Virus genome (UHGV): UHGV-1840666
Direction: 5' to 3' (one strand)
Source: a virus
Length of the DNA stretch: 14,588 nt
A program made the translations under genes and the position numbers. A model generated the notes under the pieces. It saw only the letters and a program-made list of their open reading frames with translations. It did no database searches and was not told the origin of the DNA. Shown here one piece after another: positions 1,705 to 7,602 of this stretch (positions are counted from its first letter, which is position 1; each line of letters starts with the position of its first letter).

Positions 1705-2347
1705 GCTGCACGCTCCCGCCCCTGGTTGTCTGTTGGTGACAGCGGAGCATTGCTGAATGCATTTGTTAATCCGGCAATATACAACGCGTATCCAGGGTGT
1801 AGTTGCACTGCTGGGTCTTCGCACTGATTACCCCAAACATCGAAGCCATGAGACGTTTGGCGGGCGAACAGTTCAATGCGAGAAACATCGCCTAACAATT
1901 GCACAAGTTTTTCACGAACGACATCTGGTTTTCTTGAATGCTCAAGCCGCGGTGCGGTAAATGACTGAACGATACCTGCATTAATGCGCGGAGGTAGTTT
2001 TCCCTTTACCGCAAACAGGCAATCTTCACTGTTGGCGCGAGTCATGTGTCCCATCCCCATAACCAGTTTATCTGGTTGTCGACTACCACATTTTATCCAC
2101 GTGAAGCCCTTCATGGTCATCAGACGAAATCCCCAGGCTTCAACAACTTTTAGTGCTTCGAGTGGTTGTGTTGGCACCCACCACATGGCCAACAGACAGT
2201 TTTCATCGGCCAAATCCCACACAGGAAGGCGGCAGATATCCAGCACACTCATAACCGGATATTTAAAACCGGCACCGCGATTACCATCTGCGGCTTTGTC
2301 CCGGTATACCCAGGTGGATCTGCATAGATTAGCGTGTATTTTTTCAT
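1701..2347 (-). CDS. MT-A70 family (phage Dam-like) DNA N6-adenine methyltransferase; frameshifted inside the DPPW catalytic motif near 2310-2314
   Basis: N-terminus MKKYTLIYADPP (frame of ORF 2249-2473) is followed, after a -1 shift, by WVYRDKAADGNRGAGFKYPVMSVLDI... continuing into the 183-aa ORF, which ends ...FDVWGNQ. The observed CCACCTGGG would read DPPW if it were CCACCCTGG. Confidence 0.8.
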
Positions 2348-2480
2348 TGTTCTGCTCCCAGACTTCCTTTGGTAAAGGCTTGTATCAGCCTGTTTGCTGC
2401 CGCTTTCTGTGCTGCTACATTGGCAATAACTGATAGTTTTTCCTGGCTTGCTTTCGTGCAGATCCCAACCCAATTATCCA

Positions 2481-3445
2481 TTAGGAAAAAATTCTCTCTT
2501 TCTGCGAATCAGTATTTGCACATAATGTTTCAATCATTGAAATTATTTCTTTTATTGAGTGATTAACCATCATTTGCTGAACAGCATAGCCAAAAGCGTT
2601 AATCATCACTGCATGAAACTGGATATATTCTCTTTTGTATTCTGATTGCTTTGTACCATGGCGAATTGCTTCTAGTTGTGTAAGACATAACCATGATTCC
2701 CATACTGACTCGATGTTACCAATTTCTAGTTTTTTCCCATTATGAATACAAAATTTTGATGTTGAATCACTTAATGCTTTGAAACTCACCCACATGTTTG
2801 ACTTTGACGGAACAACGTTGTGCTCGAAGTCAGTGACTTCTGCAAAAGTGTCATGTTGCGACAGGAAAGACACCATTTCTTGGGCAACATCGTTTCGTCC
2901 GTCATACGCCATATTAATTGCTGCAGATGGTTTTGAAACATTATTATTAATGTCAGAAAAGAACTGCTGACGCGCTTCAAAGGAAGGTTATGCGTAAGCA
3001 TAAGAGGAATCATAATTGTTTCGCCATAATTACGGCAGAACTCAGCTAATCCTGCAGCACGATGCTGTCCATCAAATAATTTTATTTCTGCATCCATAGG
3101 AAATCTAGCTAAACCGACATTAGTATTTCCAATCTCATGGAACTCTATTTCTGAGTTACAATTTCCGACCAATGGTGGAACAATAAATGGTTCCTTTTTC
3201 TCGTAAGCGTTGACTAAATATTGATAAAACTTTTTTACCCTGGTTGGATTAATTTCACGTTGAGAACGTTCAAGGGTACTTCCCGTATTGTCGGTTGCCA
3301 ATACTCTCGATAGTGCTCTTGCTGGTACTGTCATCATAAGTATTACAGTGCTTCCCTGCGTTCCTCGTGATGCGGGAAATTCAAAGAAATAATCGCCTAC
3401 CTTGCTCATGATATTACCTTTTACATTATTGTTTTGATTATTCAT
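2481..3445 (-). CDS. DGQHR-domain protein (DndB-like, ParB/Srx-fold); two overlapping ORFs joined by a 1-bp frameshift near 2979-2981
   Basis: N-terminal ORF contains ...IKLFDGQHRAAGLAEF..., the signature DGQHR motif. The downstream frame reads through as ...FEARQQFFSDINNNVSKPSAAINMAYDGRND... to the stop at 2481. Start could be ATG 3445 or ATG 3409 (MSKVGDYFFEF). Confidence 0.7.
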
Positions 3446-3737
3446 AAACCACCCCGCAACATCCTATGCCGCTATAGTCGCCACGGCGAAGGCCGTTACC
3501 TTTTGTGATACATTGGTCCCTGCGAACCGCGATCCTTGCACGTTCAACATCACCAGAAGCAACATCCATACACTGAAGCCAAAGGTGAGCGGCAATGCGG
3601 AATTGCCCTTTTTTCTCTCTTTCAATCGCGCGTTTTTCGATCTCTATCGCCGCAGGAGTAACGGCGACAATCTTTGACGGACTGCGCATTGAAACCTTAT
3701 TCATGTGATATTTTTCAAGTCGGCTTAACTTTCTCAC
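3438..3737 (-). CDS. Hypothetical protein (about 99 aa)
   Basis: ORF with GTG start at 3737 preceded by AGAGAGGG (RBS-like). Stop overlaps the start of the DGQHR gene. No recognisable family. Confidence 0.45.
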   Translation of the reverse strand: MRKLSRLEKYHMNKVSMRSPSKIVAVTPAAIEIEKRAIEREKKGQFRIAAHLWLQCMDVASGDVERARIAVRRDQCITKGNGLRRGDYSGIGCCGVVYE

Positions 3738-3850
3738 TTAATCCAACCCTCTCTGAAAATTAATGCCAGCAGATAAAGCCATGCTGAAACAGAGGCCAGG
3801 AATAAGTACCATCCTGACCATTTGCTCCAGTGCCTTAGCAGCACACTCAT
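3734..3850 (-). CDS. Small hydrophobic peptide (38 aa), putative single-pass membrane protein
   Basis: ATG 3850-3848 to TGA 3736-3734, product MSVLLRHWSKWSGWYLFLASVSAWLYLLALIFREGWIK with a 19-residue hydrophobic core. Stop overlaps the GTG start of the downstream gene (GTGA). Weak RBS. Confidence 0.3.
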   Translation of the reverse strand: MSVLLRHWSKWSGWYLFLASVSAWLYLLALIFREGWIK

Positions 3851-3937
3851 GCAGCGTTGCTCACAGGACGATATACACGTTGCTGAACAGGAGGCTTTTT
3901 ACCCTGGAACTCTGCCGGGCTTGCTGCCTGACGTTCA

Positions 3938-4096
3938 TCAACTCCACAGCTCAACTTCGTCACGGTTCCATGCGCAGCGTTTGTCAGTGATATACCAGCG
4001 TTTAGGAAATTCACCTGCGCGCTCCATACGGTCGATAGTGCTCCATGACAGTGGCACCACCGCCAGGAGTTCCTTCTTACCTAATGCACCTTTCAT
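3938..4096 (-). CDS. AlpA/excisionase-family small DNA-binding regulator (52 aa)
   Basis: ATG 4096-4094 preceded by AGAGAGG. Product MKGALGKKELLAVVPLSWSTIDRMERAGEFPKRWYITDKRCAWNRDEVELWS matches the AlpA-family winged-HTH pattern (..LS.STI.R....G.FP......W...EV..W). Below the 60-aa track cutoff. Confidence 0.5.
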   Translation of the reverse strand: MKGALGKKELLAVVPLSWSTIDRMERAGEFPKRWYITDKRCAWNRDEVELWS

Positions 4097-6351: not shown

Positions 6352-6428
6352 TTACCGTTGAGGTAATAATTATGCGTATTTGGTTTGATGTCAATAGATA
6401 TGAGTTAAAAAAATTACCCATAAGGTAA
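6352..6428 (-). promoter_or_regulatory. Leftward early (PL-like) promoter with two flanking operators
   Basis: Palindromes TTACCgttgaGGTAA (6352-6366) and TTACCcataaGGTAA (6414-6428) flank a perfect -35 TTGACA on the minus strand (6394-6389); AT-rich -10 region is ambiguous. An extra half-site TTACC lies at 6339-6343. Confidence 0.5.
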
Positions 6429-6440
6429 TCTTGTTGGCAA

Positions 6441-6463
6441 TAAAAAAGCCGCCATGAGGCGGC
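6441..6463 (-). terminator. Rho-independent terminator downstream of the repressor gene
   Basis: GCCGCC (6448-6453) / GGCGGC (6458-6463) stem with ATGA loop; on the minus strand the stem is followed by TTTTTT (complement of the A-run 6442-6447). Confidence 0.6.
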
Positions 6464-6485
6464 TTACTTACTGAAAACTATAGTT

Positions 6486-7069
6486 TTATTGTTTGCTTCT
6501 TTCGTTCTGGCTGATGACAAATTCAATGTAACTTTCGATCTTTGCCTTCTCTGTTTCGGGTAACAATGCGTAGCGCGAGCGGTCATAGTTGATAGTCGCA
6601 GGGTCGTGCGGGTGAATCAGTAATTCATAGCCGTGACGCCCGAATGCGGATGCAACATTCTCCAGGGTGGAAATGGAAACGCTGACTTCATTGTTTAACA
6701 GGCGGCTGATTGTCACCTGGCGACGCCGGATGCGCGGTGTAGTTTTCCCTGCGTTGAAAGGTCGCGGCTTTCGCTCATCCAGCGTTCCAGGTTGTGAGCC
6801 GCCAGCTGACCAATGTCGCTTGGGCCGACAGGCTGAAACCCCTCCTGAGAAAGCGAGCGATCGATATCAAGCCAGTTACGGGGTTTATTGGCGGCAGCTT
6901 CAATTTTTCGCGCAACCTGGTCGCCGATAACCTTCTTGCCAAGAGCCCAGCGGTTTACCAGATTTGCCTGAGTTCCAAGTTTTTCTGCCATCCGCGTCTG
7001 AACACCATTGAATTCACGGTCGATCAAGTCGTTGAGATTTTGCCTGCGGACGTCCTGGATACTTTTCAT
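6486..7069 (-). CDS. Phage immunity repressor with two tandem XRE-type HTH domains and no S24 peptidase domain; split by a 1-bp frameshift near 6714-6720
   Basis: N-terminal ORF ...GVQTRMAEKLGTQANLVNRWALGKKVIGDQVARKIEAAANKPRNWLD (HTH 1). After the shift the sequence reads ...LSTQGKLHRASGVAR-VTISRLLNNEVSVSISTLENVASAFG... (HTH 2). Sits between the two operator clusters, divergent from the Cro-like gene. Confidence 0.8.
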
Positions 7070-7124: not shown

Positions 7125-7187
7125 TTACCCAACAGGTAAATGCACCTCATAGGTAACTATCCTTGATTTTTGTTACCTTATGGGTGA
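7125..7187. promoter_or_regulatory. Tripartite operator region (OR-like) between the repressor and cro-like genes
   Basis: TTACCcaacaGGTAA (7125-7139), GCACCtcataGGTAA (7142-7156, imperfect), TTACCttatgGGTGA (7173-7187, imperfect); candidate -35 TTGATT at 7163-7168. Confidence 0.5.
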
Positions 7188-7223
7188 ATATTTATTATCT
7201 GAAATAAATATCAGGCAATAGCT

Positions 7224-7454
7224 ATGAGCGATAACGGACATTTCGATTTCAAAAAGCACTGGCTTGCACTTACTCCGGATGAGCGTGAAGCCTTCGCACA
7301 GGAAGCCGGAACGACGAGTCACTATATCCAGACTCACTTAACAGGTAAGCGCAAAATGCCAGGTAAAGTATTGATGAATGGGCTTTTTAAAGCCTGTAAA
7401 ACAAGACAATGGCTGCGCTCAAAAGCAGAACTGGCATACTTCTTCTACTCATGA
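7224..7454 (+). CDS. Cro/YdaS-like small HTH regulator (76 aa)
   Basis: First rightward gene after the operator region; ...TPDEREAFAQEAGTTSHYIQTHLTGKRKMPGKVLMNG... is HTH-like; followed by a terminator. Confidence 0.6.
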   Translation: MSDNGHFDFKKHWLALTPDEREAFAQEAGTTSHYIQTHLTGKRKMPGKVLMNGLFKACKTRQWLRSKAELAYFFYS

Positions 7455-7498: not shown

Positions 7499-7602
7499 CA
7501 TATCTATTCGTACCTCAAAGGTAATAAAAAACCAAATCTGGTTGATCAAATTTTCCAATTGTGCAAAATATCCAATATCAATAACAAAAAGAGGCGGAAA
7601 AA

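Follow-up and report, generated by a model that had tools for sequence, protein, structure and literature searches.

The minus-strand region 6486–7069 of the window (the whole stretch of 14,588 nt analyzed here, from UHGV virus genome UHGV-1840666) is a single immunity repressor gene, rep, of a phiV10-like prophage, frameshifted by one lost base. The explanation as a whole, in which one SPC32H-type Rep gene carries an artifactual frameshift and encodes a three-part protein controlled by an antirepressor, is given a probability of about 85%. Its importance is slight beyond correct annotation, which should list one intact SPC32H-type Rep and neither two ORFs nor a pseudogene.

The gene is 584 nt long in the window, where all relatives have 585 nt (194 aa and a stop codon), and its raw reading consists of two minus-strand ORFs lying head to tail in different frames (6713–7069, 118 aa; 6486–6716, 76 aa). 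In alignments with phiV10 and the prophage of E. coli APEC E19035, the coding strand changes from GCC CAG to GCC AG at the break, while restoration of the missing G yields a 194-aa ORF with 100% identity to WP_000836296.1 and 98.5% to phiV10 gp40, in agreement with the earlier note, which had proposed one repressor gene of about 190 aa after frameshift correction. The 1.1-kb rep region matches 19 phage and 543 E. coli records at 95–99.9% identity, each of the matches listed being one base longer than the window, and the rep locus occurs in 540 of 5426 complete E. coli genomes (~10%).

By sequence similarity, the corrected protein is a member of the SPC32H Rep family. A phmmer search against the PDB retrieved 5D50_A ('Repressor'; E=4.5e-42; residues 1–190 against 2–197), a PDB sequence search retrieved 5D4Z (Rep 92–198; E=4.6e-20), and tblastn aligned 98% of the query with SPC32H rep (41.8% identity). 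The top 12 Foldseek matches are all 5D50 ('Rep-Ant complex') or 5D4Z ('Repressor from Salmonella-temperate phage'), followed by ordinary XRE HTH proteins (NHTF, SinR, ClgR and HigA). Structures of the homologous Rep, alone (5D4Z) and with Ant (5D50), have been in the PDB since 2016, and the SPC32H mechanism was published in 2013 and 2016 (Kim & Ryu 2013; Kim et al. 2016, as cited in PMC7380047 and PMC9638917). According to PMC9986798, SPC32H Rep comprises an N-terminal DBD, a middle dimerization domain (MDD) and a C-terminal CAD/TetDloop for tetramer formation and Ant binding. PMC9638917 describes a Rep that binds DNA as a tetramer, where the DBD pair on each palindrome comes from different dimers, and a tetrameric Ant that binds two Rep dimers and breaks the Rep tetramer, while PMC7380047 has Ant production following LexA cleavage.

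Pfam places HTH_3 in two stretches of the corrected Rep (E=1.2e-9), of which the C-terminal one (residues 106–147) is strong, while the N-terminal one (residues 21–67) is weaker and also matches YdaS_toxin. The AlphaFold2 model was built on P0001, a family member with 97% identity; its confidence is moderate (pLDDT 75.8, pTM 0.41), and it contains five-helix bundles at 4–73 and 85–151, a disordered linker at 65–81 and a long terminal helix at 172–193 (Table 1). As modeled, the three-part layout matches that of SPC32H Rep, the C-terminal half aligning with its MDD and CAD, and the C-terminal domain carries the family-conserved motif I-x-YD...Y..LP..EK..I..FI..V. Pfam found no match to Peptidase_S24 (PF00717) in the corrected Rep even at E≤1, and the 194-aa sequence lacks the dipeptides AG and CG that would mark an Ala-Gly or Cys-Gly cleavage site. 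The domain search and structure prediction thus bear out the previously claimed presence of two XRE-type HTH domains, and likewise the claimed absence of an S24 domain and an Ala-Gly site. Internal duplication as the origin of the two HTHs was rejected, as no similarity between the two bundles is detectable (BLASTP of residues 1–75 against 81–155, no match at E≤100).

Table 1. Features of rep and its control region in the window.
Feature	Position	Strand	Basis or remark
rep, immunity repressor gene of phiV10-like (Uetakevirus) prophage	6486..7069	-	Full-length homologue of SPC32H Rep (PDB 5D50_A)
Frameshift site in rep	6719..6720	-	GG in window, GGG in relatives; inside second HTH motif (codons A117/Q118)
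N-terminal XRE/Cro-type HTH, predicted operator-reading DNA-binding domain, codons 1–64	6878..7069	-	Pfam 21–67; AF2 helices 4–59; 53% identity to SPC32H Rep NTD
Flexible linker (predicted), codons 65–84	6818..6877	-	pLDDT <50 at residues 65–81; length and sequence variable across family
Second XRE-type HTH fold, predicted equivalent of SPC32H Rep MDD, codons 85–153	6612..6817	-	Pfam 106–147; AF2 helices 85–151; Foldseek 5D4Z TMt 0.73
Putative C-terminal tetramerization/Ant-binding domain (CAD, TetDloop), codons 154–194	6489..6611	-	Aligns with SPC32H Rep 160–197, 44% identity; role from PMC9986798, PMC9638917
Terminator-like hairpin directly downstream of rep	6446..6465	-	Annotated terminator in phiV10
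Pair of exact operators (6352–6366, 6414–6428) flanking leftward promoter-like site for early-left operon	6352..6428		62-bp pair in SPC32H (33604/33666)
Leftward promoter-like site of early-left operon, TTGACA-17-AATTAT	6394-6366	leftward	Between operator pair
Operator 1, rep/cro divergent region, TTACCCAACAGGTAA, exact TTACC-N5-GGTAA palindrome	7125..7139		Triplet syntenic in SPC32H
Operator 2, GCACCTCATAGGTAA, 2 mismatches, center 17 bp from operator 1	7142..7156		17-bp spacing also in SPC32H (34390/34407)
Operator 3, TTACCTTATGGGTGA, overlaps rightward promoter-like site 7170–7198	7173..7187		Palindrome search
Divergent 76-aa Cro-position gene, homologue of phiV10 gp41 and SPC32H_042	7224..7454	+	PHROG 35 'transcriptional repressor', E=5.6e-13

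In the mechanism proposed here, RecA would be unable to trigger self-cleavage of Rep, because the S24 peptidase is absent. DNA damage would lead to cleavage of the host LexA and derepression of ant, a small gene (85 aa) which would adjoin the tailspike gene outside the window, and Ant would dock on the C-terminal domain of Rep, split the tetramer and free Rep from its operators. The N-terminal HTH would read 15-bp TTACC-N5-GGTAA palindromes and the second XRE-like fold would dimerize, while the C-terminal domain of ~40 residues would tetramerize and serve as the antirepressor docking site. These dimer, tetramer and Ant-binding roles are assigned to the E. coli-phage Rep by analogy with its Salmonella homologue.

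Induction through an antirepressor, as the earlier note had suggested, gains support from the SPC32H Rep homologue, which is inactivated by a LexA-controlled Ant (5D50), and the search for such a gene succeeded in the relatives. SPC32H ant (86 aa) is divergent from the tailspike gene, as are phiV10 gp24 and APEC E19035 WP_001188252.1, both of which are 88% identical to SPC32H Ant. The LexA box search around antirepressor candidates covered the region upstream of ant, where an exact box (CTGT-N8-ACAG) lies directly upstream of the gene in phiV10 (TACTGTGTATTTATACAGT), APEC E19035 (TACTGTATAAATATACAGT) and SPC32H (CTGTATGTTTATACAG). Of the 5426 E. coli genomes, 531 carry the ant locus, a count close to that of the rep locus, and Ant itself matches only PHROG 450 (unknown function) and, weakly, the tail of an anti-repressor family. 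No Ant homologue is encoded within the window (tblastn best E=0.71), which ends before the ant region, so that ant would lie beyond its right end; we infer its presence in the window's own prophage from the relatives phiV10 and APEC E19035. LexA boxes in the window are limited to matches with one mismatch (8 against 4.6 expected), none of them near rep, and no SOS box acts directly on rep or the Cro-position gene.

Overexpression of vB_EcoP_ZX5 ORF21, which has the phiV10 gp40 sequence, abolished free phage and blocked the lytic cycle, and the ZX5 lysogen yielded 1e9 PFU with mitomycin C (PMC9782041), while a microcin that damages DNA raised the induction of phiV10-species prophages 21- to 47-fold (bioRxiv 10.64898/2026.05.26.727859). 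Although its repressor is uncleavable, the prophage is best regarded as SOS-inducible, through LexA and Ant. As ~10% of complete E. coli genomes carry this repressor, the mechanism is relevant to predicting which prophages will react to drugs that damage DNA.

The physiological inducer might be a different protein, the Bro-N domain protein (phiV10 gp23, ZX5 ORF4), acting in place of the SPC32H-type Ant or beside it. Overexpression of ZX5 ORF4 lowered the prophage titer ~1000-fold and cut repressor transcription by 75%, and it was this protein, not Ant, that received the label 'anti-repressor' in the ZX5 study (PMC9782041); the Bro-N gene also lies near ant in phiV10 and APEC E19035, with Rep-operator-like palindromes upstream of it. 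However, ZX5 and phiV10 have identical repressors but Bro-N proteins with just 39% identity, whereas Ant is 88% conserved across to Salmonella phages, and the ZX5 paper demonstrated no binding of the Bro-N protein to Rep (PMC9782041), which leaves such a role unlikely.

The window contains five exact copies of TTACC-N5-GGTAA against 0.00 expected (200 shuffles), plus near-matches. Sites of the operator type form a triplet (7125/7142/7173), two pairs 62 bp apart (6352/6414 and 9404/9466) and singles at 7510 and 200. SPC32H has the same half-sites in syntenic places with the same 17-bp and 62-bp spacings, its pairs lying leftward and upstream of the DUF1064 gene. The 62 bp separate the starts of the paired sites (6352–6366/6414–6428 and 9404–9418/9466–9480 in the window; 33604/33666 and 35972/36034 in SPC32H), and the right-hand pair of the window (9404/9466) is also located just upstream of a DUF1064 gene. 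At ~6 helical turns, this conserved spacing would allow a single tetramer to contact both sites of a pair, and it would fit looping.

Similar palindromes occur away from the rep region. The operator-like site at 200–214 (TTACCTTAAAGGTAT), with attL on one side and the integrase start on the other, is identical to the site in the corresponding place of SPC32H (26960–26974), a hint that the repressor may control int or that the site acts at attP. Between ant and the tailspike gene, all three phages have a palindrome of the Rep-operator type, located ~40 bp upstream of the LexA box (23045–23059 in the APEC E19035 prophage, sequence L005; about 20880–20894, read on the minus strand, in phiV10, L004; 20013–20027 in SPC32H, L003), and repression by Rep may extend to ant itself or to the tailspike promoter. 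Exact 15-bp palindromes are found at 638, 3807, 20786, 21831, 21924 and 23045 of L005, which counts 7 against 0.5 expected, and at 12, 3175, 20013 and 33528–36048 of SPC32H, which counts 18 against 0.5. The scattered copies are mostly intergenic (next to the start of the terminase, upstream of the head genes and in the vicinity of the Bro-N gene), and the number of promoters under Rep, or under its Cro-position partner, may far exceed that under lambda CI.

Among 1.84 billion cluster representatives, a profile search returned just 15 clusters at E<1e-30, together with many shorter proteins matching only positions 85–192, i.e. the second HTH and the C-terminal domain. Four of these stand-alone examples (P0102, P0105, P0111 and P0113) contain a single HTH_3 and the tail I-x-YD...LP..EK..IE.FI; proteins of this kind are 110–170 aa long, some with a basic tail. 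They suggest that Rep may have originated when an older tetrameric regulator with a single HTH gained an N-terminal Cro/YdaS-like HTH. In the phiV10 clade, the second HTH, which keeps Q107, Q118 and R123 and is homologous to the sole HTH of these proteins, could still touch DNA, for example non-specifically or at the operator spacer, and Rep would then be such an older tetrameric repressor capped by a new specificity domain. In a related scenario, Rep could be a genome-wide silencer, with exact palindromes at a dozen or more intergenic sites, one of them beside the LexA box of ant, that also locks its own antirepressor. These extensions of the SPC32H-type reading are considered quite unlikely.

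The earlier note had gone further in suggesting two DNA-binding domains in one chain, which would fit binding to adjacent operators. The second HTH does keep the hallmark XRE residues Q107, Q118 and R123, in our alignment the counterparts of Q17, Q28 and Q33, which contact DNA in 434 repressor, and in the many stand-alone proteins composed of this HTH plus the C-terminal domain it is the sole candidate DNA-binding domain. On the other hand, the corresponding fold of the solved homologue SPC32H Rep is described as a dimerization domain, and the palindromes as being read by N-terminal domain pairs (PMC9986798, PMC9638917). Each operator is palindromic with two-fold symmetry, and such a site suits a pair of identical domains, not two that differ. 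SPC32H and the window phage have common half-sites and a common N-terminal recognition helix NLVNRW (ANLVNRW versus QNLVNRW), whereas helix 3 of the second HTH differs between the window and SPC32H (QVTISRLLN versus PATVNRIMK), where Q107 and Q118 are replaced by E and P. Among 14 family representatives, down to 29% identity, helix 3 of the N-terminal HTH varies and that of the second HTH is conserved, the opposite of what a specificity-determining helix in the second HTH would show; such a pattern is in keeping with a structural domain preceded by one for specificity. As the half-sites track the N-terminal helix, the palindromes are two-fold and the homologue's second HTH is the MDD, the idea of two HTHs spanning the operators is not supported, and contact of one chain with both operator 1 and operator 2 is very unlikely. 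The adjacent operators are real and lie 2 bp apart, as had been noted, but it is the assignment of the second HTH as reader of the neighboring site that lacks support; they are better explained by one tetramer with two N-terminal domain pairs.

The frameshift itself was examined with a 71-nt probe across 6719–6720, which matches 456 E. coli records, the best at 98.6%, equal to one gap. The GG allele occurs in 0 of these 456 records and is thus private to the window as judged by this probe. When compared with the near-identical prophage of APEC E19035 (NZ_CP126926.1, 99.8% identical), the window shows 12 single-base indels (at 114, 922, 2313, 2509, 2975, 3948, 4567, 4672, 6719, 8153, 9106 and 9525) and only 5 substitutions over 10.3 kb. 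Ten of the indels are a lost G or C, and three of the substitutions adjoin an indel. All indels but one (11/12) fall inside annotated CDSs and break nine genes, namely int, the MT-A70 methylase gene, the DGQHR gene, the AlpA-like regulator gene, bet, rep, the dnaT-like gene, P and the DUF1064 gene. Just 2 of the 12 coincide with CCWGG, the Dcm-site error signature, and the sequencing platform cannot be named. The rep frameshift is most likely a sequencing or assembly artifact, and very probably so, because the ratio of indels to substitutions points to assembly error and not to decay. The whole window looks like an unpolished assembly, and every frameshift within it should therefore be distrusted.

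A real frameshift would leave an inactivated repressor, either the 118-aa N-terminal fragment alone or both it and a 76-aa C-terminal piece translated on its own, and the prophage would be decaying or derepressed. The deletion is present in the sequence as given, and broken versions of rep do exist in public assemblies (P0066, P0085 and P0077). Yet the excess of indels over substitutions does not fit natural decay, nine genes, including int, bet and replication genes, would be broken at once, a prophage whose lytic genes are otherwise near-identical but whose repressor does not work would not be maintained stably, and the GG allele is in no complete E. coli genome, which makes a genuine lesion highly improbable. 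Two separate genes, or programmed ribosomal frameshifting joining both ORFs, find favor in the raw ORF map alone and are rejected as next to impossible, since all relatives encode one uninterrupted 194-aa ORF and the deletion is private to the window, the break moreover sitting within a helix-turn-helix motif.

The window starts with the 3' end of guaA and carries the attachment core ATTGAGTGGGAATGATT at 51–67 (core sequence from PMC9782041), the prophage being integrated at the guaA 3' end. Its gene order runs from int through the early-left operon, rep, the Cro-position gene and the replication genes into the terminase gene, which is the layout of phiV10, epsilon15 and SPC32H of the genus Uetakevirus. 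In the early-left operon, a DGQHR-domain gene adjoins an MT-A70 family methyltransferase gene (minus strand, about 2340–3440 of the window; 2944–4011 in the APEC E19035 sequence L002); its SPC32H equivalent is annotated as 'putative DNA-sulfur modification protein', while phiV10 is without the gene, and the pair may be a DNA-modification or defense cassette. The closest relative, a prophage of APEC O2:K1:H5, encodes an endosialidase tailspike (L005, 23164–26283), and its phiV10-like lineage is thus probably specific for the K1 capsule.

Among the closest known systems, SPC32H Rep and the window Rep have full-length homology, equal length, the three-part layout, the lack of S24 and the genus Uetakevirus in common. 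The gene order, the divergence of rep from the Cro-position gene with three operators between them and the half-sites TTACC/GGTAA are likewise common to both, and the 88%-identical Ant with its LexA box occupies the equivalent genomic position in phiV10 and APEC E19035. The two repressors differ in that identity is only 42% overall (NTD 53%, second HTH 32%, C-terminal domain 44%), that the central 5 bp of the operators are A/T-rich in SPC32H but mixed in the window, and that Q107 and Q118 of the second HTH are kept in the window Rep but lost in SPC32H Rep. SPC32H Rep has been characterized biochemically, whereas the E. coli-phage Rep is known here from sequence and model.

phiV10 gp40, vB_EcoP_ZX5 ORF21 and epsilon15 gp38 are annotated as putative repressors. 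The window Rep differs from gp40 in a few residues of the C-terminal tail (ISQNERSKQ versus INQNEKNKQ), and the 1-nt deletion is in the window copy and not in gp40. The phiV10 record is already annotated with 'two helix-turn-helix motifs (PF01381)', contrary to the novelty that had been implied for a two-HTH repressor; as the PDB also holds the homologous Rep alone and with Ant, the repressor type and its control are already known and nothing here is new.

The Gifsy and Fels-2 repressors and the CI/Tum system of coliphage 186 resemble Rep in that an uncleavable repressor receives the SOS signal through a LexA-repressed antirepressor gene (PMC7380047), but their repressor and antirepressor folds are unrelated and no sequence similarity was found. 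Lambda CI, P22 C2 and LexA have in common with Rep an N-terminal XRE-type HTH on palindromic operators and a divergent rep/cro region, whereas Rep is without S24, the Ala-Gly site and the Ser/Lys catalytic module and, unlike them, would oligomerize through the second HTH-like fold and a short C-terminal domain. Rco of plasmid pLS20 (DBD plus p53-like TetDloop, antagonized by Rap) likewise has an N-terminal XRE DBD and a C-terminal tetramerization domain, whose structure is reported in PMC9986798 to resemble that of the SPC32H Rep CAD, with tetramers that loop DNA. Rco differs in having no middle HTH-like domain, in a tetramerization domain without detectable sequence homology and in belonging to a plasmid and not to a phage.
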